Assembly: GCA_038245785.1 (NCBI GenBank)
Contig: JBBRSB010000026.1
Span: 1 to 64,000, forward strand
Direction: 5' to 3'
DNA from: Gloeobacterales cyanobacterium
Lineage (GTDB): Bacteria > Cyanobacteriota > Cyanobacteriia > Gloeobacterales > PMM-0068
Length of the DNA stretch: 64,000 nt
Shown: piece after piece, positions 4,404 to 57,538 of the stretch
Position numbering within the stretch: the first letter of the stretch is position 1
How the letters are laid out: each line of letters opens with the position of its first letter
Notes under the pieces: model-generated
Told to the model about the DNA's origin: nothing
The model's input: only the letters and a program-made list of their open reading frames with translations
The model's database searches: none
Translations under genes and position numbers: made by a program

Positions 4404-5459
4404 TTAGGAGACCAGGCTTACGCGGTCTTTAAGGAGTAAAGCCGAAGGGATGTTTTGAAGAATCCAAGGCGCTAATTCTTGACCCGTAATTAGTGACAGA
4501 ATCACCCCGTTGCGGAAATGTCCTGTAGCCACCCAAAGATTTCCTAAGGTTGTGTGGGGACCTATAACAGGAAAATCATCACTGGCCCTGGGACGCAGCC
4601 CTCCCCAATAGGTGAGCAGAGGAAACTGGGAGATTTCAGGAACCGCTTTCGAGGCACGAGCCAGAATGCCCAAAGCTCCTTCCACCGTTACCGACTCGTC
4701 ATAGCCAGCATCTTCTACCGTGCTGCCCAACAAGATGCGGCCATCAAGCTTTGGTCCTAGGTACGTATCACCTGGAGCATAAACTACCTGAGAGAGCCAA
4801 CTAGGCGGCGTTTGAATAACGATGATTTGCCCTCGCGCTGGACGAATCGCAGTCTCTAGCGGGGCAAGATTCCCAGCCCAGCTTCCTGTACAATCCACTA
4901 CTTGGTCTGCATAAAACATCCTCTCTCCTGCCTGGACACCGACGACCTTTTGCTGCTGAATCAACAACTGATCAACCTGCATGTTCTCTAAAACCCGGAC
5001 GCCCAAAGTAGCAATCAGTTTGGCAAGACCCTGGGTATATCGCTTGGCATCCAAACAAGGAACCTGGGGGTACAAAAGGGCATGGTTTATATCGGGATTG
5101 AGTTGGGGGACGAAGGCTAAAGCTTCCTCTGGGGAAAGTTTTTCAATACCTTCTTCCAAGGGTTCACGCAGAGACTCATAAGAGACCGAGATTTTTCGAA
5201 TAGTTGGGTCATAGAGAGGGTCTATACCCGTCACTTCCTTTATCTGGTCGCAGACCGGGCCAAAGAGCTTTAGGCTAGCTTCTGCCCAATCTCGCACCGG
5301 GCGCTCGATGTGAAACGGGTCCAAAATGCCAGCAGCGGCTCCCGAAGCATGGCGAGCACAGGTATCCCGCTCCAAAAGCGTAACGGTAGCTCCTTTTTGG
5401 GCCAAATAGTAGGCAACTGCGCAACCAATGACTCCTCCGCCCAAAACCAAAACGTTCAT
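4404..5459 (-). CDS. thiO: Glycine oxidase ThiO / FAD-dependent D-amino-acid oxidase family
   Basis: GGGVIG, ASGAAAGIL, WGGLRP, ATGHFRNGVILS. Confidence 0.8.
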   Translation of the reverse strand: MNVLVLGGGVIGCAVAYYLAQKGATVTLLERDTCARHASGAAAGILDPFHIERPVRDWAEASLKLFGPVCDQIKEVTGIDPLYDPTIRKISVSYESLREPLEEGIEKLSPEEALAFVPQLNPDINHALLYPQVPCLDAKRYTQGLAKLIATLGVRVLENMQVDQLLIQQQKVVGVQAGERMFYADQVVDCTGSWAGNLAPLETAIRPARGQIIVIQTPPSWLSQVVYAPGDTYLGPKLDGRILLGSTVEDAGYDESVTVEGALGILARASKAVPEISQFPLLTYWGGLRPRASDDFPVIGPHTTLGNLWVATGHFRNGVILSLITGQELAPWILQNIPSALLLKDRVSLVS

Positions 5460-5566
5460 CGTGAAATTTCTAGGGGACCCTATCCTAATCCAAAAAAGAG
5501 AGCGGGTGTATCCTGCTCACGGGTCTGTGTGAAGATAGTTGCATCAAAACCGTCTGTGAATAGCCT

Positions 5567-7312: not shown

Positions 7313-7566
7313 CGAAATCTTGGTCCGTTATTTATACCCTCCGACTGAAGACACTTTTATCATTCCTCTTTAAACTAATGTTGTCTTGTGCACTACATAG
7401 TGACAGACTGTAAATAATAGAATTGAACAACATTTTCTGTTCTTGTGAAAGCCTATGGCTATTCAAAGGTAAATTTCGCTAAATTACCCGGATTAGGAAC
7501 CAATTAAGCCAAAAAAGACTCTAAAAGAATGTTTATGTGCTGTTGTCATAATGGGGAGGAGTGATT

Positions 7567-18814: not shown

Positions 18815-19393
18815 ATGACAGCGCTCACTCTCACCCTAGACCCAATTATTCATCTGACAGACGAACAGTTCTATCAGATCTGTCAGGCGAATCGAGACCT
18901 TAGATTTGAACGCACCGCGAAGGGAGAGCTGGTAATCATGCCTCCAACGGGCTGGGATACAGGAAAACGGAATGCAGATTTAACCACTGATTTGAATTTA
19001 TGGAACCGTCAAACCCAGCTTGGTATTGTTTTTGATTCTTCCACGGGCTTTACGCTCTCTAACGGTGCCAATCGCTCTCCGGATGCAGCATGGGTAAGAA
19101 AAGAACGGCTAGACGCTTTGAGTCCAGACCCGACGGGATTTTTACCGCTGGCTCCTGATTTCGTCGTAGAATTGCGCTCTGCCAGTGATAACTGGAAGCC
19201 ACTCCAAGAAAAGATGCAAGAGTACATGGCCAATGGGGTGTGCCTGGGCTGGCTGATCAATCCTAAAGATCAGCAAGTGGAAATTTATATACCCAACCAG
19301 GAAGTAGAAGTACTTCCATCCCCCACTAATTTGTCTGGACAAGATATACTGCCAGGATTTGTTTTGGAGCTTAGTCAAATATTGAGCGTATAG
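18815..19393 (+). CDS. Uma2-family endonuclease
   Basis: FERTAKGELVIMPPTG, RSPDAAWV, APDFVVELRS, LGWLINP. Confidence 0.95.
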   Translation: MTALTLTLDPIIHLTDEQFYQICQANRDLRFERTAKGELVIMPPTGWDTGKRNADLTTDLNLWNRQTQLGIVFDSSTGFTLSNGANRSPDAAWVRKERLDALSPDPTGFLPLAPDFVVELRSASDNWKPLQEKMQEYMANGVCLGWLINPKDQQVEIYIPNQEVEVLPSPTNLSGQDILPGFVLELSQILSV

Positions 19394-19448
19394 GCGCTAG
19401 GGCAAACTTTCAAATCGTTGTGGCCCATAGACATTTTCTAGAGGCTTT

Positions 19449-20243
19449 TTATGAGTCTTCTGAATTCGAGGTTGCTTGAGCTACGGCCTCGATTTCTTCT
19501 AGGGGAAGATGGAGTGCTTGGGCTATCTGTTCCAAACTAAGGCCTAGCTTGAGAAATTCAGGCACGGTTTCCAGTTTGCCTTCCCGTTTGCCTTCCTGCT
19601 CTATCGACTTATAGAGCCTAGATTGCTTGAACTCGCTTTCCGTTATCGTTAGCATCGCCTCTATCTCCTCCTTACTCATACTGGCAAACTTGTAGGAAAC
19701 CACCGTTTCAATTATTTCTATCATATCCCTTCGGATAGCTTCCCTTGGCTCTGACTGGGCTTGCTCCAGAAGTCGTCTTGCTTTTTCTGCTGCTGTGGCT
19801 TCCGGTTCTACAACAAGTTTGAGAATACCCAGACTCATGGATGTTCCTTCTTCATCAACTTCATCCAAATAAATCCGCTCCACTTGGTTACAGTTCAGCA
19901 GGGCTCGATAGTGCGATGAATCATCGGGCTCAACATTCCTGTTGGGGAAAATGACTACCGCCCGCCAATCATTGGGCTCTGGGTACTGTCTCAAGTACAG
20001 AAAAATCTCAGAGAAGAACCGAGCATAAAATTGGGGATCTTCTTGGAACTGAACTTCTGCAAAGTAAACGGGCTGGGCAGGGAGACTCGGCAGAAATATG
20101 CCATCGATACGGAAGGCGGTCTGTTTGATTTCCACGGACCGAAATTGATATCCCTCGGCTTGTTCTGGAGACCGACCAATCAGGCAGAAGAAACTCTCTG
20201 GGAGCGTCTGGAAGATTCGGTAGAAGAGGCTATCTGTTTTCAC
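19449..20243 (-). CDS. Rpn-family nuclease / putative transposase (DUF2887)
   Basis: KTDSLFYRIFQ, SVEIKQTAFRIDG, YFAEVQFQ. The GTG start at 20243 is more plausible than 20354. Confidence 0.9.
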   Translation of the reverse strand: MKTDSLFYRIFQTLPESFFCLIGRSPEQAEGYQFRSVEIKQTAFRIDGIFLPSLPAQPVYFAEVQFQEDPQFYARFFSEIFLYLRQYPEPNDWRAVVIFPNRNVEPDDSSHYRALLNCNQVERIYLDEVDEEGTSMSLGILKLVVEPEATAAEKARRLLEQAQSEPREAIRRDMIEIIETVVSYKFASMSKEEIEAMLTITESEFKQSRLYKSIEQEGKREGKLETVPEFLKLGLSLEQIAQALHLPLEEIEAVAQATSNSEDS

Positions 20244-20382
20244 AGCGCTTAGTTTAGCGCAGACTGGTTGCGCAGGATAAGAGAACAAAAGCGCTCTTCG
20301 CCCTACATGCTTATGAAAAAAGCGAGGATAGCTCTTCTTCCGGGTTATAAACAACTTATTGGATTAGCGTGCAAGGTCTGTA

Positions 20383-27746: not shown

Positions 27747-28763
27747 ATGACTTTTCCTATCGGCATTAATGGCTTTGGTCGCATTGGTCGTATGTTCTTG
27801 CGGGCATTGTTGGCTCGTCAATCTGACCTGGAAGTGGTTGCAGTCAACGATCTTACTTCCCCCGATAATCTGGCTTACCTACTCAAATACGACTCGGTCC
27901 ATGGTCCCTTCAAAGGCACGGTGGAGGTCGATGGCAATGACCTGGTCGTCAACGGCAAGAAAATCAAAGTCCTGTCCAAAAGAGACCCGGCAGAACTGGG
28001 CTGGGGTGACTTAGACATACCGCTCGTTGTAGAGTCCACCGGATTTTTCACCAAGAGGGAAGGGGCGGCAAAGCATATAGAAGCAGGAACGAAGGTTGTC
28101 CTGATCAGTGCTCCGGCTACCGACCCAGACCTAACCGTTGTACCCGGTGTCAATGACCATGCTTGGGATGCTGGGAAACACCGCATTATTTCTGTGGCTT
28201 CTTGTACCACCAATGCTTCTGCTCCGCCCGTAGAAGTCCTGCACCGCCACTTTGGTGTAGAGAAAGCACTGCTTAACACGGTTCATGCCTACACCAGTAC
28301 TCAGGCTGTGCTTGATAGTCCTGGAGGCAAAGGAGATTTCCGCCGAGGTAGAGCAGCAGTTGAAAGTATCATTCCGGCTAGTACAGGAGCGGCCAAAGCC
28401 ATTGCCCTGGTTTTACCGGAACTGAAAGGAAAACTGGACGGCCTCGCGGTACGGGTCCCCGTGCCCGATGGCTCTCTAGTAGATATTACAGGAACGCTAG
28501 AAAAGCCCGTTACGGTGGAAGCCCTACACGCGGTCTTCAAAGAAGAAGCGGCCTCCAGTCGTTATAAAGGCATCTTGGCCCTCAGCGAAGAGCCCTTAGT
28601 ATCCTGCGATATCATCGGCACGACCTATTCCAGCATTATCGACGCCACCTCGACGATGGTATTGGGCGACCGTTTCTTTAAGATTCTGGCCTGGTACGAC
28701 AACGAATATGGTTATGCTAACCGCGTGGTCGATATGGCCGAACGGTATGCCAAAGCGATGTAA
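27747..28763 (+). CDS. gap: Type I glyceraldehyde-3-phosphate dehydrogenase
   Basis: GINGFGRIGR, ASCTTN, STGAAKA, WYDNEYGY. Confidence 0.97.
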   Translation: MTFPIGINGFGRIGRMFLRALLARQSDLEVVAVNDLTSPDNLAYLLKYDSVHGPFKGTVEVDGNDLVVNGKKIKVLSKRDPAELGWGDLDIPLVVESTGFFTKREGAAKHIEAGTKVVLISAPATDPDLTVVPGVNDHAWDAGKHRIISVASCTTNASAPPVEVLHRHFGVEKALLNTVHAYTSTQAVLDSPGGKGDFRRGRAAVESIIPASTGAAKAIALVLPELKGKLDGLAVRVPVPDGSLVDITGTLEKPVTVEALHAVFKEEAASSRYKGILALSEEPLVSCDIIGTTYSSIIDATSTMVLGDRFFKILAWYDNEYGYANRVVDMAERYAKAM

Positions 28764-28789
28764 CCCCAATTCATATACCGATAGCAACC

Positions 28790-28815
28790 TAGAGACGCAA
28801 GACCTTGCGTCTCTA
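28790..28815. repeat. REP-like hairpin (GTAG-type)
   Basis: TAGAGACGCAAG-AC-CTTGCGTCTCTA has perfect 12-bp arms and lies just downstream of gap. Confidence 0.75.
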
Positions 28816-28833
28816 CTAATGCGCATCAGACCA

Positions 28834-29073
28834 TTAATGCAAGAAGTGACGAATTCCAGTGAGGACCATGACCAAACCAAGTTCATCACAGGCCATAGCC
28901 TGAAGTAGCGCTGTAATATAGAGAGTACAAAGAAGAATTAGCGCATGACGATTGAAATTAAAATGCCCCCGGAGCTGGAACGCCAGTTACAGCAAGCGGC
29001 AGAGCAAGCTGGCGTTACACCAGATATGTACGTTGTTCATCTCCTGCAGCAGGATCTCAAGCAGTCCCATCCC
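28834..29073 (+). repeat. 240-bp direct repeat, copy A (purH 3'-end copy + spacer + antitoxin 5' half)
   Basis: Colinear with 33323..33562. The first ~60 bp match the purH end at 37586..37645. Confidence 0.92.
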
Positions 29074-29175
29074 AATCTACTTGTTCGCAAACCAAATCTT
29101 CATCCGGGGGCATTTGTGCTCAGTGATGATTTTGATGAACCGCTGCCTGATAGTTTTTGGTTAGGAGAAGCATGA
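28945..29175 (+). CDS. Antitoxin (DUF2281-like C-terminus) of a VapBC-type module
   Basis: C-terminus RKPNLHPGAFVLSDDFDEPLPDSFWLGE. Its stop overlaps the ATG of the PIN gene. Confidence 0.8.
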   Translation: MTIEIKMPPELERQLQQAAEQAGVTPDMYVVHLLQQDLKQSHPNLLVRKPNLHPGAFVLSDDFDEPLPDSFWLGEA

Positions 29176-29558
29176 AGCTTCTGCTAGATACGCACACCTT
29201 TATGTAGTGGGACAGTGATACCAGCCGTATTCCACCAGAAACACTCTCCATAATGCAGCAATCTGACACTCAGCTTTTAGCCAGTCTTGTTAGTCTGTGG
29301 GAAGTCCAAATTAAAACTCAAATCGGCAAACTAACCTTGAAAGCTCCTCTTGCCGAAATTATTGCCCACCAGCAGACTGAAAATGGAATTATCCTACTTC
29401 CGATTACCCTGCCGCATATCCTGGAGCTTGATAACCTACCTCAACATCACAAAGATCCATTCGATCGATTGCTGATTGCTCAATGCCGTAGCGAGTCTGC
29501 AACATTAGTCAGCCGTGATCTGATTTTCAAACAATATGACTGCCCACTGCTCTGGTAA
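29172..29558 (+). pseudogene. VapC/PIN toxin with premature amber stop
   Basis: MKLLLDTHTFM*WD (TAG at 29205-29207) continues in frame to SLWEVQIK..GKL and HHKDPFDRLLIAQ. Confidence 0.88.
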
Positions 29559-29634
29559 GTCACGATTAAAGTTAGTCTTGATTAGCAACAATTGCCTCCG
29601 CCTATGGGTATTGAAACTTCCATCTGCGACAACA

Positions 29635-29870
29635 CCCTCAGCGAAGAGCCCTTAAGTGGGTCAACCTTGAAAAAGATGGCATTGCTTGAGCTGGAACTCT
29701 CTCGGGGAGAGGCATTCTTGAAGAACTGTACTATATTTAATCTGGCCCACCCACTTAATATCCTGCGATATCATCGGTACGGCCTATTCCAGCATTATCG
29801 ATGCACCTCGACGATGGAGTTGGATGACCGTTTCTTCAAGATTTTGGCCTGGTACGTCAAAGCGATGTGA
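29635..29870 (+). pseudogene. Degenerate duplicate of the gap 3' end
   Basis: Matches gap 28579..28763 (ccctcagcgaagagccctta...atcctgcgatatcatcgg...ggcctggtacg...caaagcgatgt) with substitutions, a deletion and an insertion. Confidence 0.9.
29655..29755. mobile_element. 101-bp MITE-like insertion
   Basis: Interrupts the gap copy. It has 7-bp TIRs AGTGGGT/ACCCACT and TA on both sides. Confidence 0.7.
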
Positions 29871-29948
29871 GGATAATGAATAGTCGTTATAAAAGAGCGG
29901 GCTGAATTTTTGTCTTAAAACCCCTCTTTGTTTATCAGAAAATCATCC

Positions 29949-30212
29949 TTAACTAATAATTTCTGTCTTATATTTTTTGAGATCTACTATTTCTGTATTA
30001 CCAACCCTCGTTGGGATGCCTTCGCACTTTGTAATTTTTACAATAAGAGTATTACTATCAACGGGAACTTAGAGTATTTCAGCTTCATATGTCCCATCTA
30101 CAGAGCCAGCAGGGTGAGGAATCTCTACTCCCGACAGGAAAGTTTCTTTATTTATAAATGGTATGGCTATAACTTCATTGTCTACCCGAATCAAATCTCC
30201 GACTTTATACAC
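29949..30212 (-). pseudogene. Small hypothetical gene with internal stop
   Basis: GAGGA RBS + GTG; MYKVGDLIRVDNE...AEIL*VPVDSNTLIVKITKCEG...TEIIS*, with an in-frame TAA at 30069-30071. Confidence 0.5.
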
Positions 30213-30340
30213 TTTTCTATTCCTCAACAAACGAATTTAGCATAGTTTTGAAAAAGATGTTATTTCATGAAGACTTGATGTGTTTTTTGTAAAAACTTTC
30301 TCTAGATCATCACCTGAATTGTGTCCTCAGCCGTGAGAGA

Positions 30341-30631
30341 CTAGTCGGCAGCATCTTCTTTGGTAGAGTCATAGGTGATGCGGTCGAGACGATCATTGGC
30401 ATCTTTAGCAAACTGGATACTTCGCACTGTGGATACCAAGCCTCCGGCAGTGGTGACTGCTCCCTCTGTAACTTTGCCGCTCAAGAGTAGTCCGGCTCCC
30501 CCTAAGCTAATGCAGGTAGAGGTAGCGATAGTAAACAGAGCAAGATTAAAACTATGGCGGGCTTGGCGAATACGTTCTTGGAGAATGAGATCTTCGGGTG
30601 GGGTGGGTTGAGGTTGAGAAAGCTGAGACAT
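30341..30631 (-). CDS. Two-TM membrane protein (TRADD-N-associated membrane domain-like)
   Basis: QERIRQARHSFNLAL...GAGLLLSGKVTEGAVTTAGGL...AKDANDRLD; divergent from the NACHT gene. Confidence 0.7.
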   Translation of the reverse strand: MSQLSQPQPTPPEDLILQERIRQARHSFNLALFTIATSTCISLGGAGLLLSGKVTEGAVTTAGGLVSTVRSIQFAKDANDRLDRITYDSTKEDAAD

Positions 30632-30787
30632 GACAGTTGATATCCGTTGAATCTATGTCTTCAGTATCAAGGAAAATTCTGGAGACTCTGTCTAGGTAAT
30701 GCTTTCAGCTTGAACAACTTATGTCGCCAAGTTGTGTAACTTTTGTGTAAGTGGTTACAATTAGCTCGGATTTGCTGGTATGGATAT

Positions 30788-33226
30788 ATGACAGGACGAG
30801 CAAAGCGATCGATTGCAGCGACGCCGGAAGGATTAAAGCAAATCACGAAGAAACGGGAGACAAGTGGGAAAACTGCCGAAGTGATTGGCGACCTAGTTAG
30901 TGTATCGCGAAGCTCGGCACAGAAGTTTTTTTCGGGGAAACCCATTGCTGTAGAGAATTTTCAAAAGCTTTGTAAGGAACTGAATCTGGACTGGGAGGAG
31001 ATTGCTGGGCTAAGGCAGCTAGAGCAACCAGCCACGTCCCATTCATCAGTGTCACCAATTACCCCCACAGAGTTAGAGGCGCTGGTACAGCAGGCACGCG
31101 AACGCGGGTGTAAGGATATTGAGAAGCGCTGTGGAACGATGCGCGTGTTGGATATGAACCAGCCGATTGGCTTGGGAGCGATCTATACCGACGTGAACAT
31201 TCTAGAGAAGATTACGGGGAAAACTCGACGGGATTTAGCTGAGTTGATGCAAGGGTGTACGGCAGAGAATTTTGATCGATTCTCTTTAGGGGAGGTACGT
31301 GAAAAGCGGGTGGATGGGCTGGAAGCGGTACAGGCAAAAAAGCAATTAATGATTTTGGGGCGACCGGGAGCGGGTAAAACTACTTTTCTCAAGCGATTGG
31401 CAACATTATGCAACCAAGGGGAGTTTTTGCTAGAGCAGGTGCCGATTTTTGTCACATTGAAGGAGTTTGCTGAAACGATTAATCAACCAGGGTTGCTGGA
31501 TTTTATCACGCATAACTTATCACCTCAGATAGAAATAGCAGTAGTAGATAACTTTCTAAGACAAGGGCGAGGGTTAGTATTACTAGATGGGTTAGATGAG
31601 GTGCTGGAGAAAGACCATGACCGGGTGCTACAAGAAATTCGGGAGTTCGCTCGGTACTATGACCAATCACACATCATCATTACTTGCAGAATTGCGGCAC
31701 AGGAATACGTATTTGAACAGTTTACTGATGTGGAGATGGCAGATTTTAATGATAAGCAGATCCAAGATTTTGCCGACAAGTGGTTTAAAGCAAAGGAACC
31801 AGAAAAACTGGATATAGTAGGTAAATCGACCATTGCTCAGTTATTTTGGCAAGCGCTTGAAGAGCAAAAACTAATTAAAGAACTGGCGACAAACCCATTG
31901 CTGTTGACGTTGCTATGTTTGGAGTTTAAAGAGTCTTCGAAATTTCCCCAGAGTCGGGCAGAGCTGTATGAGCGGGGATTAAATATTCTGTTGCGCAAGT
32001 GGGATAAACAGCGGCGAATTAAGCGGGATGAAGTGTATAAGGGTCTGCCAATTGAGCACAAAAAAATCATGCTAGGGCATCTGGCAATGCACACCTTTGA
32101 GCGGGGTGAGTATTTCTTTCGGACGAATGTTGCCGAAAAACAGATTGGGCAATACATTCAAAATTTGCCGAATGCCAGCATTGACCCGGATGCACTGCTG
32201 ATAGATAGCCATGCGGTGCTGAAATCAATTGAATCTCAGCATGGGTTACTCACAGAACGGGCAACGGATATCTATTCGTTTTCACATCTAACGTTTCATG
32301 AATATTTCGCGGCAAAAAATATTTTAGATACGTCTGATGCGGATCATCGGAAAGCGGCATTGGATCGGTTAGCAGGATATATTACCGAGAAGCGTTGGCG
32401 CGAAGTGTTTCTGTTGGTAGTGGAGCGAATGGAGAATGCTGATTACTTACTAACGGTGATGCTGCAACAGATTAACTCGATATTGGCAGAAGATGAAGCC
32501 CTGCAACGGTTTCTGAATTGGGTCAGCGAAAAGGCAACTTCAGTAGACACACCTTATAAAACTGCTTCAATTCGAGCGTTTTACCTCGATCTCTCCCTTG
32601 ACCGCGCCCTCGACCTCTCCCTCGACCTCGCCCTCAACCGCGCCGAAAACCTCGACCGCAACCTCGACCTCTCCCTCGACCTCGCCCTCAACCTCAACCG
32701 CGCCCTCAACCTCAACCCCAACCTCGACCTCGCCGAAAACCGCGCCAAAAACCTCGACCTCGACCTCGACCTCTCCCTCGACCTCGCCCTCGACCTCGCT
32801 CTCGCCCTCAACTGCAACCTCGACCTCTTCCTCAACCGCAGCCTCACCCTCGCCCTCAACCGCAACCTCGCCCGCGCTCTCAACCTCGACCTCGACCCCG
32901 AATTGCAGCGTGCGTTGCAAGTACTTCGAAACCAGCTACCACCCCGACCGCAAAACGCAGAAGAATTTGAACAATGGTGGAGAACTCAAGGGCAAGCATG
33001 GTGGAGAACTCAAGGGCAAGCATGGATAGAAAAACTTAGAGCCGCGATGAATGAGTATCGAAAACTTGGGCATGATTGGAAATTCAGCACTGAACAGATA
33101 AACAAACTCAACCAGTATTACACTGCCAATTTGTTGTTAGTTGAGTGTCTGAAGCGTGCTGATTCACCTAAGGAGGAGGAGGCGCGGCAACGGATTGAGG
33201 ACGGTATGCTGTTGCCAATGGGTTAG
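30788..33226 (+). CDS. NACHT-family STAND NTPase with N-terminal HTH and C-terminal helical/low-complexity region
   Basis: Walker A GRPGAGKTT, Walker B LLDGLDEV, ITCR, NPLLLTLLC, FSHLTFHEYF. The ATG at 30788 was chosen. Confidence 0.92.
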   Translation: MTGRAKRSIAATPEGLKQITKKRETSGKTAEVIGDLVSVSRSSAQKFFSGKPIAVENFQKLCKELNLDWEEIAGLRQLEQPATSHSSVSPITPTELEALVQQARERGCKDIEKRCGTMRVLDMNQPIGLGAIYTDVNILEKITGKTRRDLAELMQGCTAENFDRFSLGEVREKRVDGLEAVQAKKQLMILGRPGAGKTTFLKRLATLCNQGEFLLEQVPIFVTLKEFAETINQPGLLDFITHNLSPQIEIAVVDNFLRQGRGLVLLDGLDEVLEKDHDRVLQEIREFARYYDQSHIIITCRIAAQEYVFEQFTDVEMADFNDKQIQDFADKWFKAKEPEKLDIVGKSTIAQLFWQALEEQKLIKELATNPLLLTLLCLEFKESSKFPQSRAELYERGLNILLRKWDKQRRIKRDEVYKGLPIEHKKIMLGHLAMHTFERGEYFFRTNVAEKQIGQYIQNLPNASIDPDALLIDSHAVLKSIESQHGLLTERATDIYSFSHLTFHEYFAAKNILDTSDADHRKAALDRLAGYITEKRWREVFLLVVERMENADYLLTVMLQQINSILAEDEALQRFLNWVSEKATSVDTPYKTASIRAFYLDLSLDRALDLSLDLALNRAENLDRNLDLSLDLALNLNRALNLNPNLDLAENRAKNLDLDLDLSLDLALDLALALNCNLDLFLNRSLTLALNRNLARALNLDLDPELQRALQVLRNQLPPRPQNAEEFEQWWRTQGQAWWRTQGQAWIEKLRAAMNEYRKLGHDWKFSTEQINKLNQYYTANLLLVECLKRADSPKEEEARQRIEDGMLLPMG
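32584..32899 (+). repeat. C-rich hexamer tandem tract (CTCGAC/CTCAAC/CTCGCC) encoding LDL-type repeats
   Basis: Directly visible, in frame within the NACHT gene. Confidence 0.95.
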
Positions 33227-33322
33227 CTCGTTGCCTTCCGCTATAACTCAACCGTCCTGGCCTAGTGAATCTTCGTCGTGTCCTTTTTGAGACTTATGAA
33301 CATCCACCAGATTTTTGAAATG

Positions 33323-33562
33323 CTAATGCAAAAAGTGACGAATTCCAGTGAGGAAAATAAACAAACCGAGTTCATCACAAGCCATAACCTGAAATGACGC
33401 TGTAGTATAGAGAGTACAAAGAAAAATCAGCCCATGACGATTGAAATTAAAATGTCTCCGGAGCTAGAGCGCCAGTTACATCAGGCGGCAGAGCAAGCTG
33501 GCGTTACACCAGATATGTACGTTGTTCACCTGCTGCAACAAGATCTTAAGCAATCCCATCCC
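33323..33562 (+). repeat. 240-bp direct repeat, copy B
   Basis: Colinear with 28834..29073. 33306..33382 also matches 37569..37645, including sequence past the purH stop. Confidence 0.92.
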
Positions 33563-33847
33563 CATGATGACGTTCGAAGACTACCTCGTGATCAAGCTGA
33601 ACTACTTCAGCGAATTAATCGCAGCTTGTCTCCTGTTGAGTGGCAACGCTATCATGAACTTCAGGAAAAACGCCACGCTGAGCTATTAACCTCACAAGAA
33701 CAAGCCGAGTTGATAAGATTTTCTGACCAAATTGAAGAAATCAACGCACACCGTATTCAAGATTTAGTGGAATTGGCTCAAATCCGGCACACAACACTTA
33801 ATGACCTTATCGTTGAACTAGGGTTGAAACCGATACCTCATGCCTGA
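33434..33847 (+). CDS. Antitoxin-like protein (helical C-terminus); partner gene truncated
   Basis: First 43 aa are near-identical to those of the 28945 ORF. C-terminus is LLQRIN..L....WQRYHEL.EKR..ELLT.QEQAELI. An overlapping ATG at 33840 gives only 12 aa. Confidence 0.7.
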   Translation: MTIEIKMSPELERQLHQAAEQAGVTPDMYVVHLLQQDLKQSHPHDDVRRLPRDQAELLQRINRSLSPVEWQRYHELQEKRHAELLTSQEQAELIRFSDQIEEINAHRIQDLVELAQIRHTTLNDLIVELGLKPIPHA

Positions 33848-33909
33848 AGGCCGTCTAAAGAACAAGCACGCAGGTTAACCTGAAAACTTACTGATCACCA
33901 TATATGGCT

Positions 33910-35769
33910 TTAGAGAGGTATAAGTTTATTCTCATCATTAAACTCTGCAAATACATATTCACGAGCAATCTCTGGAACAGTATTGTCAGACACAATAATT
34001 TGCAAACGATTCTGATGTTGCTGACTGATCCGAATGATATAGGCATACATGGCTTCAATACGTTCAAGATCTGGCCCATCATAGCCAATATTACTGGACA
34101 GACCATCAATTAGCAAAATGTTGGGGAGTTTTAAATCGAAATGCATACAAGTTAGTTGGTGTGCCAAAGCATGAGCAGTATTGACCATTGTCTTGAGACC
34201 TTGAGACTCCAACTCATCAAAACGTCTTCCCTCGAAGAGAGGTAAATACGTTTTGCGATCAATGATTGATGGTCCCGGATCCGCAAAAGATGGCACTCGA
34301 ATTTCTTGTAAGATTTCTTGATAAGTGCTGTTCAGAAAACTTATATAGCTTTCAAACTCTGAAGCTCGGCTATTAGCTAAATCAATAGCTACGTCCAACT
34401 CTTCGAGACGGGATGTTAATTGTGCAATACCACTGGTAGTCTGATCTTGTCGATTATATAGTCCAAGATACTCTTCTAAACGTTGCTTTTGCTCTTGCAA
34501 TTGAGTGCGGTGTTGCTCCACCTGCGCGATTTGCTCTGCTTGTTCAGAAACATAGCGGCGAGAACGATGGTTTATCTCGGAGGATAAGGTTTGGCGATAC
34601 GCAGCTAGCTGAGTGATTTCCTGTTCAATCCTACCAACTGTAGTGCGATGTGCGTCCACTAGTTCAACGGTTTCGGTGATTTGTTGTTCTAGACGGTCTT
34701 GTTCCTTTATTAAATCGGTTTGGGTGATTTGAGGCTCTGGTTTTTGCAAGCACAGATAGCAAGTTTCTGGTTCGGTTCGGGATGGTTGAATAGGAGAGCC
34801 ACAACGAGGGCAAGACAGGAAATCAAAATCCAGTAAATAGTTTCCTGCCACGATCGACTTGGTAAGTCTGGCACTTTGGGTGTGTAGTTGGGCGATGAGG
34901 CCTTGCTTCTGTTCGAGACTGTACTGCTCATACTGGAGATTCTGGTGAAGTTTATCCAATTTTTGCTGTACTTCTAAAAGATTATGACGCAACTCATCTG
35001 TGTTTGTATAACCTCTGATTTCCTGTGCTAGAGTTTCTGAATCCGAATATGCTGTTTCCAGCTCACGGATTATATTATTGAGGCTATGGATAATAGTTGC
35101 TCGATTCTCAAATGGTGTTCCTGCAAGAAATTCATCGATGGTTTTAGCATAGTTCTGTAAACGTCTAATTTCACTAACCGTTTCACGACGTTCCATTAGT
35201 AGTTGAGCTACTTCGACATCATACTTGCCGTAAATGACTTCAAAAACGTACTTGCGTTTGTTGTTTTTGAAAGAATTACTATGTCCAAAGACGCTATCAT
35301 CAATTTCATCTTGACGAAGATGACAATACATCATGTAATCATTGATGGACAAAGGTGATGTATCACTGTCATCTTGAGTTGGGGCTGTAGGAACTCTCAG
35401 GGTCGGCAAGTTAAGTTTTTCCAGCAACCAAGTTCCATAGGTCTCTTCATTGGTCTTACCACGCAAAGCTGGTAAACGTCTTGCCTCATTTTTACCAGCG
35501 ATAGAAACCATTGCGTCAATTGTCGTGCTGAAAGGTCTGATAATTTCATAGGAATTATCACCAATAAGAACCTCCCCAGCCAAATTAGTGATGTTCTCTC
35601 GTGCTTCTCTTGAAAAATCTTTAAGTACAGAACCCAATAATCCCCGAAAGCACTTAATCAGTGTTGTCTTGCCAGTTGTGATTGAACCTGTCACGATATT
35701 TAAACCGGGTTTCAGAGAAAATTCACGCCCAGCACCTAGCAAGTTGATCTTATTGATAGCCATTTTCAT
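33910..35769 (-). CDS. SMC/Rad50-like ABC ATPase (Lamassu LmuB-like)
   Basis: Walker A GSITTGKT, coiled coils, central CPRC/CYLC zinc-hook-like motif, SQG signature and Walker B ILLIDG. Confidence 0.85.
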   Translation of the reverse strand: MKMAINKINLLGAGREFSLKPGLNIVTGSITTGKTTLIKCFRGLLGSVLKDFSREARENITNLAGEVLIGDNSYEIIRPFSTTIDAMVSIAGKNEARRLPALRGKTNEETYGTWLLEKLNLPTLRVPTAPTQDDSDTSPLSINDYMMYCHLRQDEIDDSVFGHSNSFKNNKRKYVFEVIYGKYDVEVAQLLMERRETVSEIRRLQNYAKTIDEFLAGTPFENRATIIHSLNNIIRELETAYSDSETLAQEIRGYTNTDELRHNLLEVQQKLDKLHQNLQYEQYSLEQKQGLIAQLHTQSARLTKSIVAGNYLLDFDFLSCPRCGSPIQPSRTEPETCYLCLQKPEPQITQTDLIKEQDRLEQQITETVELVDAHRTTVGRIEQEITQLAAYRQTLSSEINHRSRRYVSEQAEQIAQVEQHRTQLQEQKQRLEEYLGLYNRQDQTTSGIAQLTSRLEELDVAIDLANSRASEFESYISFLNSTYQEILQEIRVPSFADPGPSIIDRKTYLPLFEGRRFDELESQGLKTMVNTAHALAHQLTCMHFDLKLPNILLIDGLSSNIGYDGPDLERIEAMYAYIIRISQQHQNRLQIIVSDNTVPEIAREYVFAEFNDENKLIPL

Positions 35770-36284
35770 AGTTCTTGACCCCAGGAAGCACTAGTAACTT
35801 CGGGAAAGTGTTTATAGATAAAATCCTTGAGCGTACTACCGGAAAGATTGAAATTCTGTTTTAAAAGTTTGATACGTAGGCTAGTTTCTGACCAACTATC
35901 TTCCTTTGCAAGAGCTTTGGCAATTTGACTACCTCGCTCTGTGGTGCGATAACTCAAGCCTAGCTTATTAGGTACTATTTCAATTAGCCCTTTACCAATA
36001 AGTCTACCGAGTATAGCGTAGTATGATGGATCCCAAGGACCGTAACGATATCGAATCATGCGCCCCTCAATATTATGCTGTTCTTCAAAAGCTACTTCCA
36101 TAACTTGATTTGACGTGCGAATGGCTAGGGCACGTTGCATGAAGCTAGGATAGCGTAGCAGAAAATTAAGTTTAGCTAACTTGGTTCTGCCTTCTAGAGA
36201 TTGGGTTGTTGTAGTAAAAGCATTAATAAGCAGCAAGATGCGCGCTTCACTCTCAATAGAAGGTTGAAATAGTTCTTTACGCAA
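35766..36284 (-). CDS. ABC three-component middle protein (LmuC-like)
   Basis: 172 aa, overlapping both neighbours. Motifs KLAKLNFLLRYP and RYRYGPWD with a wHTH-like pattern. Confidence 0.75.
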   Translation of the reverse strand: MRKELFQPSIESEARILLLINAFTTTTQSLEGRTKLAKLNFLLRYPSFMQRALAIRTSNQVMEVAFEEQHNIEGRMIRYRYGPWDPSYYAILGRLIGKGLIEIVPNKLGLSYRTTERGSQIAKALAKEDSWSETSLRIKLLKQNFNLSGSTLKDFIYKHFPEVTSASWGQEL

Positions 36285-37428
36285 TTTTTACCCCCCAATC
36301 AATGTGGCACTCATCAGAAAGTCTACAGGCTGCACCCATTAACAGAAAAGTTTCCTGTTTATATATGAGATTGGGATCAAGAAATTCCTTCTTTTGAGTT
36401 AACTCATTGAGAACTTCTCTCCAGATAATCTTGGCTGGCTTTTCTGATTCATCATGGCTTTCTACAATTGAATTTATGATTGTTTGAATTCGAATCTGTA
36501 CATCCGTAATTTTTTCTTCCTCATTTAAAAATCCAGATGCTAGAACTTCAGTTTCGCGGATACAGGCATTAGCTCGTAAGTTTTTCGCATCTTTAATAAT
36601 TCTGTCAGTAGCTCCGCCCGCAATAAGTTTCTTTTCTAGATTAGTTGGAGTTGGCGATTCAAGATCAATAATTCTCTGTAATAGAGGATAATTGCCATTA
36701 GTCAAAGAACCCAGAATAACACTGATACTTTGAGCAGTAAGACGTTTAGACTCTATCTTTAATTTGATTTCAGTTTCAACATCTTGTCCTTGTACAATGT
36801 AATTGTACAAGGAGTTACCTAAGCAATCACAGTGCATTGCGCGATAAATTTCATCCGTAAGATTCCTCTCTATCGTTTCAATTTCAATGATCGAAGTCTT
36901 TGCTGAAATCTTGCCAATCAGGTGAATATTGTGTGAGGTAATGTTTGCTCGAGGTGTTTGATTAGGATGAACAGTGACAACTTTGAGAAAAGTCCTGCAA
37001 TCAGAATCATTAATTTTAAGTGCTTGAGATATTTTCTCCACAAAACTATCTGAAATATCTTTTTTGGTTGGAACCAAAGTATTAAGATCGTCTCCTGCTG
37101 ATATTGCTCCTTCGATAAAGAGACTATATTTAGCCTCTATATGAGATGTCTCATTAAAAGCACGGTACAGACTTTTTAAACCATCTATGGCCTCCGGTAG
37201 TTTCCAGTGCCCTCGATTTGCATTTCGGGTTTTGACTTGAATGAAATGCCAGTAATTATCGTACTCAACGACAATATCTTCAAAGTGCTCCATGATAACA
37301 GAGCGCACTTCTTCCTTGCGAGCACATGCCAGACAGAATGGTAGAGCAAGCTGAGCTTGATAACGAAACCTTCGCAGTGTCTCGGTACCTGTATCATCGG
37401 GCGGTGTCTGATTGAGAAGATTTTTCAT
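36277..37428 (-). CDS. Cap4/DUF4297-like dsDNA endonuclease effector (LmuA-like)
   Basis: RFRYQ...EHFEDIVV...FIQVKT, a PD-(D/E)xK-type motif. The C-terminal domain ends L.DEC.IDW. Confidence 0.82.
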   Translation of the reverse strand: MKNLLNQTPPDDTGTETLRRFRYQAQLALPFCLACARKEEVRSVIMEHFEDIVVEYDNYWHFIQVKTRNANRGHWKLPEAIDGLKSLYRAFNETSHIEAKYSLFIEGAISAGDDLNTLVPTKKDISDSFVEKISQALKINDSDCRTFLKVVTVHPNQTPRANITSHNIHLIGKISAKTSIIEIETIERNLTDEIYRAMHCDCLGNSLYNYIVQGQDVETEIKLKIESKRLTAQSISVILGSLTNGNYPLLQRIIDLESPTPTNLEKKLIAGGATDRIIKDAKNLRANACIRETEVLASGFLNEEEKITDVQIRIQTIINSIVESHDESEKPAKIIWREVLNELTQKKEFLDPNLIYKQETFLLMGAACRLSDECHIDWGVKIA

Positions 37429-37585
37429 CGCGTGCTGTTATGGAAGTCGCGGACAAAGCTAAGTATCTCATTGCAAGGAACGGATAGCTAAAAGGAACCA
37501 TTAGCTTTCAATTCTTGCTTTTATGCAGTGGAAACAGAAGCCTTACTTTTTAGGATTTGTGAAAATTTACCAGATTTTTGAAGCG

Positions 37586-39133
37586 CTAATGCAAAAAGTG
37601 GCGAATTCCGGTGAGGACCATGACCAAACCAAGTTCATCACAGGCTTTGATTGAATCTTGGTCACGCACACTGCCCCCTGGCTGCACAATCGCCCAAATT
37701 CCTTGAGCGGCAGCGGCGCGAACCGTGTCATCGAAAGGGAAGAAGCCATCGCTGGCTAGGACTGCTCCTTGAGCTTTTTCTCCCGCTTGCGTAAGCGCCA
37801 ATTGGGCAGAACCAACCCGATTCATCTGCCCGGCACCAATCCCCACCGTCTGACCGCCTCGCGTGACAACAATGGCGTTGGATTTGACATGCTTTACACA
37901 GCGCCAAGCGAACAGCAGTTCGGCTAAATCTTCTGGCGTGGGCTTTAGGACGGTGGCTACTTTCCATGTGGACGGGTCAATGGGGGCATTGTCACTGGCT
38001 TGACTAAGCATCCCTCCAGCAATTGGTTTCAAATCCCGTTCTGGGCAATAGCTTAAATCGGGCAATTCTAAAATGCGGAGATTGGTTTTCTTGCTGAGGA
38101 TGGCTAGGGCTTCTGGACTATAGCCTGGAGCAACCACGCATTCTAGAAAAGTGGTTGTTAGGGTTTGGGCTGTGGCTTCATCCACCGATTGGCTAAGCGC
38201 AACAATGCCACCAAAGGCAGAGACAGAATCGGCTTCATAGGCTTTGGTATAGGCCTGATGCAGGGAATCTCCAAGGGCGACGCCGCAGGGATTCATATGC
38301 TTGATAATCACCGCTGCCGCTTGGGAGTCTGCCAAAAATTCAGCCACAATTCGGCGGGAGGCTTCCAAGTCCATCAAATTGTTGAAGCTTAGCTCCTTCC
38401 CCTGATGCTTATGGGCCGTGGTCCACCCTTGAGGAGCGGTGCTATACCAAACAGCAGGTTGATGAGGATTTTCTCCGTAGCGTAGCGCTTGTAATGGAGC
38501 GGCTTCAATCCGCAAAGGCGCTAGCTCCGTCGTCTGTGTCGTGAACCAAGTACTGATCGCCTGGTCGTAGTTCGCCGTGCGGGTAAAAGCTTTCATCGCA
38601 CATTGGCGGCGGAACTCTAGGCTGGGTTTGCCTGCTTGATTCAGTTCTTCTACATAATCCCCATACTGACTGGGGTCTGTCAGCACCGTTACATACTGAT
38701 GATTTTTGGCGGCGGAGCGGGTCAGCGAAGGACCACCAATATCAATATTTTCAATCGCTTCGTCCCAGCTAACATCCGGTTTGGCGACTGTAGCCTCAAA
38801 AGGATAGAGATTTACGACCACCAACTCAATCGGGACAATGCCCTGAGCTGCCATTTGAGCCAGGTCAGAATCCCGGTCTGTGCGCCCTAGAATGCCCCCG
38901 TGCAGCTTGGGATGCAAGGTTTTAACACGACCATCCAGAATTTCGGGAGAACCTGTATAGGCAGAAACCTCCGTCACTGGAATCCCGGCAGCCATCAGCG
39001 CCTTGGCCGTGCCGCCACTGGAAATCAGATGGAACCCAAATTGCTCGACTAAGGCTCGGGCCAGTTCCACCAGCCCCGTCTTATCAGAAACACTTAAAAG
39101 GGCTTGGCGGGGCTTAGTTCCTGCAGTCGTCAT
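37586..39133 (-). CDS. purH: Bifunctional AICAR transformylase/IMP cyclohydrolase
   Basis: ALLSVSDKTG, GRVKTLHP, LRYGENPHQ, ASDGFFPF, TGIRHFLH. Confidence 0.98.
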   Translation of the reverse strand: MTTAGTKPRQALLSVSDKTGLVELARALVEQFGFHLISSGGTAKALMAAGIPVTEVSAYTGSPEILDGRVKTLHPKLHGGILGRTDRDSDLAQMAAQGIVPIELVVVNLYPFEATVAKPDVSWDEAIENIDIGGPSLTRSAAKNHQYVTVLTDPSQYGDYVEELNQAGKPSLEFRRQCAMKAFTRTANYDQAISTWFTTQTTELAPLRIEAAPLQALRYGENPHQPAVWYSTAPQGWTTAHKHQGKELSFNNLMDLEASRRIVAEFLADSQAAAVIIKHMNPCGVALGDSLHQAYTKAYEADSVSAFGGIVALSQSVDEATAQTLTTTFLECVVAPGYSPEALAILSKKTNLRILELPDLSYCPERDLKPIAGGMLSQASDNAPIDPSTWKVATVLKPTPEDLAELLFAWRCVKHVKSNAIVVTRGGQTVGIGAGQMNRVGSAQLALTQAGEKAQGAVLASDGFFPFDDTVRAAAAQGIWAIVQPGGSVRDQDSIKACDELGLVMVLTGIRHFLH

Positions 39134-46704: not shown

Positions 46705-47124
46705 TCATTCTTCCAATCTTCCTCCAGATTGATTTTGGATGTACTTTTTGACTATTTCTAAAGGTGCGCCACCACAAGAAATAATGCACTTAGAGTCATG
46801 CCAAAGTTTAGCTTTGCCCCAATAGACTTTATCGATTTCAGCCTTGAATTGCTGTCTCAAGACTCTGCTAGAAGCTGATTTCAGAGAAGCCAGTAAATCA
46901 GAAATATTGTTATCAGGATGTAAGTCAATCAATAAGTGAACATGATCCGGTTCACCGTTGAACTCGGTCAAAACAGACTGATTTGCCGTCAAAACTCTCT
47001 CTAGGACAGGTTTCATGACTTCTAACATTGGCTGGGTAAGAACTTTTCTCCTGTATTTGGTCACAAAAACGATATGCAGGTGAATCCTAAAAACAACATG
47101 AGACCCGCTCCTGAGTGAAGTCAT
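46705..47124 (-). CDS. tnpA: IS200/IS605 HUH (Y1) transposase
   Basis: HIVFVTKYRR, EPDHVHLL (HUH), LKSASSR, KKYIQNQ. Confidence 0.96.
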   Translation of the reverse strand: MTSLRSGSHVVFRIHLHIVFVTKYRRKVLTQPMLEVMKPVLERVLTANQSVLTEFNGEPDHVHLLIDLHPDNNISDLLASLKSASSRVLRQQFKAEIDKVYWGKAKLWHDSKCIISCGGAPLEIVKKYIQNQSGGRLEE

Positions 47125-47210
47125 ACAGCCTTCTAGTCATTGTTAAAACTACTGTTATACTGATTGTATGCATAAATATCGAGTGAATCAATAAACCAAG
47201 GTAATCATTC

Positions 47211-48563
47211 GTGGTGATGAGACGGCAGACATTTCGACTGTATCCAAACAAGGCTCAAGAAAAAGCTTTGTTTGAGGCACGTCGTTTGCACTGCTATCTA
47301 TACAATGCCTGTATTTCTCATCGTCAAACAGAGTACCGTCTAGGCAATAAAACGGTTGACTACTTGACTCAACAAAACCTCTTGCCTGCATTCAAGCAGG
47401 AATGGGTGGAGTTTGCGGTCTTGAATTCTCAGGCGTTGCAGGGCACAGTAAAACGGGTTGACCTGGCTTACCAGTCATTCTTCAAAGGATTACGCGGGAA
47501 GCCTAAATTCAAATCGATTCATAATTACTCAGGATGGACTTACACCTCGTTTACGGGGTGGAAAGTTGATACTGAGGGCAAGCATGGAACCATGATTCTC
47601 AAAGACTTGGGAATTGCTCTCAAGATGCGAGGCGAGGCTAAAGAATGGGGCAAACCGGGTACCTTGACCCTTGTTTATAAACCGTCCTTACGTCAGTGGT
47701 TTGCATCGTTCACGATTGAAGTCGCAGTAAAAGAAGCGAAGTTTGGATCTGATTCTGACCTCGCCTATCAATCGCTCGTGACCTATGACTTAGGAACTGA
47801 GACAGCGATTACGCTGTTTGATGGGACTGAGTTTGAGGAAATTGAAAATCCTCGATTCAGTCACAACAATGACGTAAAAGTTCGTAAAGTTGCTAGACAG
47901 AAAAGGAGGAAACGCGCCCCTAGAGAAGGTGTTAGGGCTTCACGCCGTTGGAAGAAAATCAACAAACGGGAATCCAATCTAAAAGCTAAGGTGTCTCGTC
48001 AGCGTCAAGACTGGCAGCACAAGATTACATCAGACATTGCAAGTCGTTATGACATCGGTGTAACTGAAAAGCTGAATACCAAAGGAATGACCCACAAAGC
48101 GAAGAAGGGGAGTAAGCGTAAGGCTCAGAAAGCAGGACTCAATAAGTCCATTTTGTCGGTTGGGTTTGGGACTCTCAACAAGATGGTCACTTACAAAATT
48201 GAGCAAAAAGGTGGACTTGTCTTGCAGCTTCCCACACGCATTATCAAACCATCGCAGCGATGCCCCAATTGTGGAGTCATTCATAAAGAATGGGCACAAC
48301 TAGGCAATCGGTACCATATCTGTTCTGATTGTGGATTTGAGGTTCCCAGGGATCAGGGATCTGCGATGGTGATGTACAACGTTGCGACAAATCAGCAACT
48401 GGGGCTAGGAACTAGCCTCATTAGTCTTGGATGCTTTAGCTCTACTTCGCAGACTCGTAAACATACGGGTTCTATGAAGCAACTAGGGCAAATAAAGAGA
48501 CAGAAATCTAACCCTGTAGACGGAGGGGTTTCGGAAACCCCATCTGCCTACGCGGTGGGGTAG
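47211..48563 (+). CDS. tnpB: RNA-guided endonuclease TnpB
   Basis: FRLYP N-terminus, RuvC I YDLG, RuvC II TEKL, zinc finger CPNC..CSDC, RuvC III RDQGSA. Confidence 0.94.
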   Translation: MVMRRQTFRLYPNKAQEKALFEARRLHCYLYNACISHRQTEYRLGNKTVDYLTQQNLLPAFKQEWVEFAVLNSQALQGTVKRVDLAYQSFFKGLRGKPKFKSIHNYSGWTYTSFTGWKVDTEGKHGTMILKDLGIALKMRGEAKEWGKPGTLTLVYKPSLRQWFASFTIEVAVKEAKFGSDSDLAYQSLVTYDLGTETAITLFDGTEFEEIENPRFSHNNDVKVRKVARQKRRKRAPREGVRASRRWKKINKRESNLKAKVSRQRQDWQHKITSDIASRYDIGVTEKLNTKGMTHKAKKGSKRKAQKAGLNKSILSVGFGTLNKMVTYKIEQKGGLVLQLPTRIIKPSQRCPNCGVIHKEWAQLGNRYHICSDCGFEVPRDQGSAMVMYNVATNQQLGLGTSLISLGCFSSTSQTRKHTGSMKQLGQIKRQKSNPVDGGVSETPSAYAVG

Positions 48564-56131: not shown

Positions 56132-57538
56132 ATGCTGGCCATGTTTGTAGGCAGAGTGCAAGAGTTACAGATTCTTGGGCGTGAGTATAACCGTTCTCGG
56201 CCTTCCCTCATTGTGGTGCTGGGGCAGCGGCGCGTTGGGAAATCAACGCTGCTTTTGAAAAGTATTGAAGGCCGATCCCATATTTACTACCAAGCGACCA
56301 AGCTCACGGATTCAGACAACCAGATGCTGTTCAAGCAAGCGATTGCGGCTGAATTAGGCTCTGATCCGCTCCTCAATAGCCTAAATGACTGGGCTGGAAT
56401 TTGGAGTTATCTTCAGCAAGTCGCAGCACAGCGACCAGGCTTAACCGTCATCCTAGATGAGTTTCCCTACCTCTGTGAGGCACAACCCGCTCTTCCCTCT
56501 ATCCTTCAAAGCGCTTGGGACCGAATACAGGCCCAGGCTGCCCCTCTCAACTTGGTGCTCTGTGGCTCCAAAATCTCCTTTATGGAGGAATTACTCGCTG
56601 AACGAAATCCCTTGCGCGGAAGACAAACGATAGAACTGGATCTTGCACCGCTCCCCTATCGCGATGCTGTGTGCTGCTTTCCAAACTGGTCGCCGATAGA
56701 GAAACTGTCTGCCTACGGAGTTTTTGGGGGTATGCCCTATTATCTTTCCCTATGCGATCCATCCGCTCCTCTGGCTGTCAATATCCGTGAGGTAATCCTC
56801 GACCGGGGTGCGGCCCTCCATGATGAACCCAATCTCTTACTCCAGGCTGAGCTTACCAGTGTTTCTCGCTATGCCAGTATCCTCCATGCCATCGCGGATG
56901 GTTGTAAAGAGTGGGGAGACATTCTTGGGCGGTTGCGGGATATCAAGGGCAGCAGCCAACTTTCCCCTTACGTCAAAAAGCTTGAAGGGTTACGCCTGAT
57001 TCAGATAATAAGGTCCCTTGATGCCCATGAACGGCAGCGCCAATATCGATACTATCTGGATGATCCTTTTCTCTCCTTCTGGTATCGCTTCGTATTACCG
57101 AATTGGTCTGCGTTAGAGTCTGGTCATTCCCAGGCAGTCTATGAACGCATGATTGAGCCCTTTCTCGATGATTATATGGGATGTCTTTTCGAACGAATTT
57201 GCCAAGAATATATGCGCTTATATGGACAAGAACTGTTAGGAAATCCTGCTCAGGAAGTGGGTCGTATTTGGGCAGGAGACTTTGATATTGATGTCGCCGG
57301 AAAACTACTGGATGGCTCAGTCTTCTACGGCGAATGCAAATGGTGGAAGAATCTTGTCGGAGAGAATATTCTGGACCGCCTGATCGAGCATTCAACACGA
57401 ACAACCTATGGAAAAGGAAACATCCCTTGCCACTATCTCATCTTTGCTCGGCAGGGATTCACCGCAGACCTCAAAGCCAGAGCTGCGAACAATCCCAACA
57501 TATATCTTGTCACCCCAGAGAAACTGCTCGGCCCGTGA
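56132..57538 (+). CDS. Archaeal-type AAA ATPase with wHTH and C-terminal PD-(D/E)xK (DUF234) domain
   Basis: FVGR..EL, GQRRVGKS, ILDEFPYL, GGMPYYL, DIDV...GECKW. Confidence 0.88.
   Translation: MLAMFVGRVQELQILGREYNRSRPSLIVVLGQRRVGKSTLLLKSIEGRSHIYYQATKLTDSDNQMLFKQAIAAELGSDPLLNSLNDWAGIWSYLQQVAAQRPGLTVILDEFPYLCEAQPALPSILQSAWDRIQAQAAPLNLVLCGSKISFMEELLAERNPLRGRQTIELDLAPLPYRDAVCCFPNWSPIEKLSAYGVFGGMPYYLSLCDPSAPLAVNIREVILDRGAALHDEPNLLLQAELTSVSRYASILHAIADGCKEWGDILGRLRDIKGSSQLSPYVKKLEGLRLIQIIRSLDAHERQRQYRYYLDDPFLSFWYRFVLPNWSALESGHSQAVYERMIEPFLDDYMGCLFERICQEYMRLYGQELLGNPAQEVGRIWAGDFDIDVAGKLLDGSVFYGECKWWKNLVGENILDRLIEHSTRTTYGKGNIPCHYLIFARQGFTADLKARAANNPNIYLVTPEKLLGP

Follow-up and report, generated by a model that had tools for sequence, protein, structure and literature searches.

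The window analyzed here comprises positions 1-64000 of contig C26 in the 5.0 Mb genome of a Gloeobacterales cyanobacterium (C2, C26 and similar labels denote contigs of this genome). Our subject is the 8.8 kb between two convergent housekeeping genes in it, gap (GAPDH; 27747-28763, + strand; Pfam Gp_dh_N and Gp_dh_C) and purH (37586-39133, - strand; Pfam AICARFT_IMPCHas and MGS). The interval has a G+C content of 0.36-0.52, compared with 0.52-0.54 in the two genes. A first-pass annotation described it as a stack of toxin-antitoxin (TA) and defense cassettes punctuated by the 3′ ends of purH (three in all) and gap (two), built up in a way that restores the essential gene. The gene order is as described, gap and purH are both intact, and alignment and BLAST bear out the number of 3′ ends. 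Within the genome the repeats are well beyond chance (BLAST E 5e-18 to 1e-83), and neither tail has further copies elsewhere.

The last 60 bp of purH (37586-37645 in the working gene) recur on the same strand as copy A (28834-28893, 56/60 identical) and copy B (33323-33382, 52/60 identical). Copy A encodes ACDELGLVMVLTGIRHFLH and the stop codon with exactly four silent changes relative to purH, the same four that were listed when it was first described as an exact PurH C-terminus. What is true of A is not true of the copies in general, as B has, besides five silent changes, three amino-acid changes (V>F, M>I and V>F) that had gone unmentioned. On the coding strand each of these three substitutions is a G>T change, and all lie within codons 8-10 of the 20. 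The repeat between A and B runs on past the tail for ~240 bp into the promoter and antitoxin gene (88% identity over 242 bp); the two have one common junction between purH tail and promoter (28894-28944 at copy A, including the region upstream of its antitoxin; 42/50 identical to that at B) and different downstream flanks. Across the tail, promoter and antitoxin start, units A and B are 84-90% alike, which points to a long divergence before they met here. A 7-bp word at their joint is common to the purH tail and the promoter region of a relative (p 0.014-0.036, post hoc). The units measure 4.5, 4.3 and about 1 kb.

The gap tail has one duplicate, at 29635-29870 (a tail of ~185 bp), with 88.9% identity over the aligned part at 29754-29860. 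The copy carries six synonymous and five nonsynonymous changes, one of the five being a deletion junction itself, and has decayed through deletions of 1 and 51 bp and through a 101-bp insert (29655-29755) that resembles a miniature inverted-repeat transposable element, bears terminal inverted repeats of 7 bp and is flanked by TA on either side. The insert splits off the first 20 bp of the copy (29635-29654, +), which match 28579-28598 exactly; the remainder (29756-29907, +) contains both deletions, continues as gap tail to 29870 and then passes into a flank that is found behind gap in relatives. A search by terminal repeats recovered the insert once in the genome, and it has a 71% relative in G001, a genome of the same genus; it is presumably of IS630 type.

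Other features fill the space between these copies. A palindrome resembling repetitive extragenic palindromes (28790-28815; eight pattern matches in the genome) separates gap from copy A, and a 73% inverted repeat between the start of gap and 28815-28840 is taken as chance. Copy A is followed by an antitoxin-like open reading frame (ORF) of 76 aa without a Pfam family (28945-29175, +), whose first 44 codons are 90% identical to those of antitoxin B and whose C-terminus differs, and by a PIN (VapC-type) toxin pseudogene (29172-29558, +; Pfam PIN 5e-8 on the downstream part) with an in-frame TAG at codon 12 of its translation. Beyond the gap copy are genes for a CyanoTRADD-associated 2TM protein (30341-30631, -; PF20712) and an HTH-NACHT-repeat-NCH2 protein (30743-33226, +; Pfam NACHT, NCH2 and HTH_3, with a weak match to PADLOC PDC-S60), which is bacterial NLR-like and probably has a role in defense. 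A low-complexity Leu-Asp/Asn repeat with a 12-18 bp period inside the NACHT gene (32567-32890) draws many foreign contigs in read mapping.

The 3′ remnant of an ancestral HNH toxin gene (33241-33318, +; 79% identical to the intact HNH end in L048, a relative's contig spanning gap to purH) adjoins copy B, behind which come the junction, upstream region and antitoxin-like ORF B (33383-33847, +; the ORF of 137 aa at 33434-33847) and a 5′ stub of the HNH gene identified by alignment to L048 (33840-33880, +). The complete Lamassu operon recognized by PADLOC and Pfam (33910-37428, -) comprises lmuB, an SMC-like ATPase gene (33910-35769; PADLOC LmuB 2e-93), lmuC (35766-36284; LmuC 9e-9) and lmuA, a Cap4 nuclease gene (36277-37428; LmuA 5e-27); the three are adjacent on one strand and qualify by gene content as LmuABC. 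This gene set is an ordinary one for the Lamassu system, and its anti-phage activity is a prediction. A second HNH 3′ remnant, more decayed by comparison with L048 (37549-37581, +), adjoins purH. An intact toxin gene is missing behind both antitoxins, the PIN gene having an internal stop and the HNH partner of antitoxin B being split by Lamassu.

The earlier statement that no integrase or transposase lies inside the region stands. The integrase family PF00589 has no match on C26 (12 elsewhere in the genome), and Pfam, the PF00589 search and a scan of the window's ORFs found no integrase or integrase remnant in or beside the units. The only transposase among the ORFs of the window that were scanned belongs to an IS200/IS605 pair (Y1 transposase and TnpB, 46705-48563) 9 kb away. 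The further proposal of an integron-like hotspot with the tails as site-specific recombination sites fails on every defining feature tested. An IntI-like integrase gene with an attI-like site is present (C2:146-1263), and the genome's attI-like profile gives 14 sites at E<1e-3 and 27 hits to E=10, none of the 27 on C26. Scanning with a simple pattern, not a covariance model (RYYYAAC..GTTRRRY, which we take to be the attC consensus), revealed no attC-like hairpin between cassettes; the one pattern match in 28701-37700 lies inside lmuB and folds at -7.6 kcal/mol over 130 nt.

The interval in relatives

The relatives that can be compared are two genomes of the same genus (G001 and G002) and the metagenome contig L048, and what lies between gap and purH differs among them and the window, as the stacking proposal anticipated. 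The order in L048 is gap, an antitoxin gene 82% identical to antitoxin B, an intact 142-aa HNH gene, a decayed stretch that is presumably HicA-like, and purH, with each tail present once. G001 is near-identical to L048 as far as its contig reaches, and in G002 gap and purH are on different contigs with other neighbors. In G001 and L048 the gene that follows gap is orthologous to antitoxin B, and the antitoxin module is 82% identical to the relative's, compared with 84-85% for gap and purH. Judged by this divergence, the antitoxin-HNH module is a resident, vertically inherited pair and not a mobile cassette. As a mobile driver of the locus the module was rejected, given its vertical ortholog and three paralog loci on C9 and C12 that show only repeats internal to TA clusters and no host gene tails. 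The TA clusters at C12:103500-108000 and C9:127300-129200 contain internal duplications of 80-300 bp at ~90% identity, antitoxin-HNH paralogs included.

Aligned to L048, the HNH 5′ stub after antitoxin B and the 3′ remnants adjoining copy B and purH place Lamassu inside the old HNH gene. The flank found behind gap in L048 and G002 survives here behind the gap copy and differs from the one behind the working gene; the older resident end is therefore likely to be the copy. The flanks behind copy A and behind the working gap matched nothing in the relatives, Lamassu and NACHT were absent from the relatives searched, and lmuB was found in 0/13 other genomes of the order. The relative's spacer was also considered as a decayed purH tail, a similarity that is not significant (its score was reached by 52-1937 of 2000 shuffles in eight comparisons).

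Tail copies are not a general feature of purH. Of the other purH loci, 88 offered 1 kb or more of downstream sequence, and none of these has one (the window's own was excluded, a further 20 loci had less sequence or no 3′ end, and loci from genomes were covered for only 1.5 kb), which speaks against purH as a common attachment site.

Divergence and recurrence of the tail copies

If the copies derive from once-functional alleles, as first proposed, changes along the copy lineage should be biased toward synonymous sites. Among 18 tail copies compared with their genes, 113 changes are synonymous and 76 nonsynonymous, with ~44 synonymous expected. Eight copies at six genes (purH, gap, tsaD, nrtD, an ABC-2 permease gene and mntB) could be polarized with relatives, omitting changes with an ambiguous outgroup. 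On the gene branch 16/20 changes are synonymous, as selection predicts, and silent changes alone are therefore no proof of allelic origin; that part of the original signal belongs to the working genes. On the copy branch 20/33 are synonymous against a neutral expectation of 22-31% (transition/transversion weights 1 to 8; p 2e-6 to 4e-4), a bias that persists under strong transition weighting and supports an origin of the copies in once-functional alleles. The ABC-2 copy contributes 7 of the 20 synonymous copy-branch changes, and the tsaD, SpoIIM, TPS, HsdS, AKR, GH79 and C2 HNH copies show no significant synonymous bias.

A genome self-comparison of contigs >3 kb, of the kind that the first-pass annotation had recommended, yielded 472 local direct repeats. 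We then kept the low-copy repeats 30-400 bp long in which one member falls within an ORF of 150 aa or more and its partner is not inside a same-strand ORF that large. This left 59 rows: 17 with the 3′ end copied downstream, 5 with the 3′ end upstream, 10 with the 5′ end upstream, 1 with the 5′ end downstream and 26 internal (gap and mntB are classed as internal, their alignments ending ~60 bp before the stop). The 3′ end is touched in 22/59 rows, compared with 9.5% expected under uniform placement. The 17 rows represent 14 genes, giving a downstream to upstream ratio by gene of 14:5 (p=0.064). The tail pattern recurs at about a dozen other genes of the genome, with tails of 36-272 bp. The cargo between gene and copy includes DUF4351, DUF433, helicase-PLD and metabolic genes, and Uma2 together with an MmeI-type system; integrase and transposase families were absent among 67 of the 160 ORFs listed around 17 such sites.

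The ABC-2 permease locus (C38:20000-31000) holds ~8 kb of TA and unknown genes behind the permease gene and a 272-bp tail copy in which 21/23 changes are synonymous, together with two further 96% repeats of the downstream flank, and the site is empty in both G001 and G002. At an nrtD-like locus (C3:213000-225500; locus positions 3526-9862) an ABC ATPase gene is followed by helicase-PLD and FGE/CHAT genes, a tail copy, a small ORF with HNH and a second tail copy; the copies are 47 and 71 bp long, and G002 has an orphan of 128 bp. This arrangement is a stack parallel to that at purH, and G002, without the operon there, keeps the small ORF and the orphan tail. The mntB-like locus (C4:52500-61500) consists of the permease gene, Uma2, a split MmeI-type restriction system, a tail copy and an Abi_2 gene, and is a restriction-system case of the same tail pattern. 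Clean empty sites were not found at tsaD, nrtD and mntB, where the relatives have other neighbors or short contigs.

A probable nested insertion and its alternatives

Starting from what was observed directly (the layout, the simpler state in the relative, the allele-like divergence of the copies, the common A/B junction and the missing att sites), we favor an explanation by insertion with long target duplication, repeated and nested at the convergent gap and purH and likely effected by host recombination, and put its probability at about 60%. The integrase-free insertions would each, in all likelihood, have restored the gene and left behind the tail of the other allele. Initially, one illegitimate joint, possibly at the 7-bp microhomology, would have linked the resident antitoxin-HNH pair, at its promoter, to the purH tail, whether as a short tandem duplication or as the corresponding event between two alleles. 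The interior of the unit may then have been replaced in different strains by Lamassu, PIN and NACHT genes. Chromosomal DNA from other strains, likely taken up by natural transformation, would have recombined at one end by way of long homology in gap or purH and at the other end by way of either a short tail copy or a newly formed illegitimate joint; alleles would in this way be added instead of swapped. After each event the gene would be whole, with a single orphan tail, derived from a working allele, remaining.

By this explanation the tails would be scars that double as short homology arms for host (RecA-type) recombination, and not sites of a dedicated recombinase. Their re-use as homology is plausible given that A and B have one junction and different downstream flanks. 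The first joint would most likely have arisen by homology-facilitated illegitimate recombination, in which joints form at 3-8 bp of microhomology. This RecA-dependent integration of heterologous DNA with a homologous anchor during natural transformation is described in one text for Streptococcus, Acinetobacter and Pseudomonas and not for this organism (PMC6382021). The genome has full-length matches to comEC and dprA without internal stops, which fits natural transformation without showing it. As a tentative extension, possible rather than probable, the duplicated tails may act as reusable landing pads in naturally competent cyanobacteria: with a first tail copy in place, incoming hotspot alleles would be added in front of it and the resident cargo not replaced, making a recombinase-free, additive cassette system for defense genes at many genes of one genome and on both sides of a convergent pair.

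Several points weigh against the favored explanation. L048 is the only contig that spans gap to purH, and its near-identity to G001 means that the two are not independent. No single insertion is seen against an empty site at gap-purH in the relatives compared, among which there is no same-species strain; L048 has single tails, but it is ~15% diverged and carries the antitoxin-HNH pair. The silent differences fall partly on the branch of the working gene, the 7-bp microhomology is weak and was chosen after the fact, and the downstream bias counted by gene falls short of significance. Several of the 14 genes (tsaD, SpoIIM, TPS and HsdS) are cases of paralog or domain repeats in which no synonymous bias is seen. 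A genome may carry competence genes and not be competent, a 60-bp tail is a short substrate for homologous recombination, and the events cannot be placed in a fixed order.

The alternative that survives best, which we nevertheless consider unlikely, is that integrative elements targeting the 3′ end of purH accreted in tandem, through a site-specific integrase that either works in trans or has been lost. Such tandems at gene 3′ ends are described for cis-mobilizable elements (CIMEs), whose units are separated by copies of the target-gene end with no integrase left (PMC5704250). Two units with three tail copies obey the n+1 rule expected of them, A and B agree in length (60 bp) and junction, and the 12 PF00589 matches elsewhere could supply an enzyme. 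CIMEs as described there depend on a site-specific integrase, of which the searches in and beside the units recovered neither a gene nor a remnant, and on an att core that stays constant in a conserved target. On such a core the observations point both ways: the length and junction common to A and B would suit it, and the lack of a copy at all 88 other purH loci would not. The unit ends are resident genes common to the relative at core-gene divergence, the pattern extends to ~14 unrelated genes with varied tail lengths (three at nrtD alone: 47, 71 and 128 bp), and the gap copy would require a second integrase.

Next in probability, and likewise improbable in our view, are tandem duplications of the gap-purH interval in place, later eroded by deletion and neutral decay; strains would have exchanged no DNA here, and the tails would not have been used again. 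The duplicated unit is indeed resident DNA with a 7-bp direct repeat at its joint, other TA clusters of the genome contain similar partial duplications (80-300 bp), and copy B and the gap copy show decay. Against neutral decay, the copy-branch changes are strongly synonymous, and copy A has no amino-acid change though unit A is 10-16% diverged from unit B; an origin in place also leaves unexplained the flank behind A and the working gap that matches nothing in relatives, and the presence of Lamassu and NACHT, which were not found in the relatives searched.

We think it very improbable that the 8.75-kb stretch from copy A to purH exists as a separate circle, or was misjoined at the 35 bp that A and purH have in common. 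That stretch of identity forms one unitig of depth 112, and k=31 unitigs break at it and cannot phase the repeat by themselves. Unitigs of the likely source run tile the region without differing letters, and their depth is even inside and outside (49-64), which fits one copy per chromosome and argues against the simple misassembly that the first-pass annotation had asked to be considered; being of the likely source run, they are not independent support. Pfam found no replication gene in the stretch, and a 35-bp repeat is shorter than a normal read. Alternative alleles sought in sequencing run X2 yielded low-depth pieces only and no informative joint.

Least probable of all is shuffling of cassettes at gene tails by the genome's integron integrase or a similar enzyme, which the IntI-like gene on C2 and its 14 attI-like sites might suggest, and which we dismiss given that no profile hit falls on this contig, that the sole attC-pattern match is a weak fold inside lmuB, and that the tails are coding sequence of varying length without att boxes.

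Relation to known insertions

Insertion with long target duplication was described for restriction-modification systems by Furuta, Abe and Kobayashi (2010; PMC2853133). That paper reports direct repeats that vary in length above 30 bp, inserts shorter than 20 kb and free of mobility genes, and repeats often spanning a start or stop site in a way that leaves the gene intact, in Microcystis and mostly in naturally competent species, with the mechanism undemonstrated. Measured against that description, the locus has direct repeats >30 bp that are unique in the genome (the 60-bp purH and ~185-bp gap tails) and inserts <20 kb (4.5, 4.3 and about 1 kb) without mobility genes. It departs from the class in its cargo, which is Lamassu, NACHT and TA genes and not the R and M genes that were the paper's own filter; restriction cargo of that type is present in this genome at the mntB site. 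In contrast to the near-identical repeats of the published class, the copies here are alleles diverged by 5-13%, the events are nested at two convergent genes, and one junction recurs.

For hotspots of horizontal gene transfer that lack integrases and lie between core genes, Oliveira et al. (2017; PMC5635113) propose double crossover within the genes on either side. The resemblance lies in variable cargo between two core genes, the lack of mobile-element proteins, a role for host homologous recombination and enrichment in transformable species, the last being a finding of that study. Double crossover in their model replaces content and duplicates no tail, whereas here content accumulates and tails are duplicated.

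Insertion with a tail copy is already known for restriction systems, and what is new at this locus is the two-sided stacking and the reused junction; in the literature searched, with most subscription journals outside reach, stacking from two sides at duplicated gene tails did not turn up. We regard the locus as a clear and rich example of a known phenomenon rather than a new system. How defense systems enter integrase-free hotspots is an open question, and insertion with long target duplication has no demonstrated mechanism; the simpler state in the relative, the recurring junction and the allele-like tails point to host recombination. A practical search rule is that orphan gene tails mark TA and defense cargo. 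Elsewhere in the window, small insertions lie beside core genes, with Uma2 and DUF2887 genes between radA and topA (18815-20354) and an ATPase-DUF234 gene behind ppk (56132-57538).

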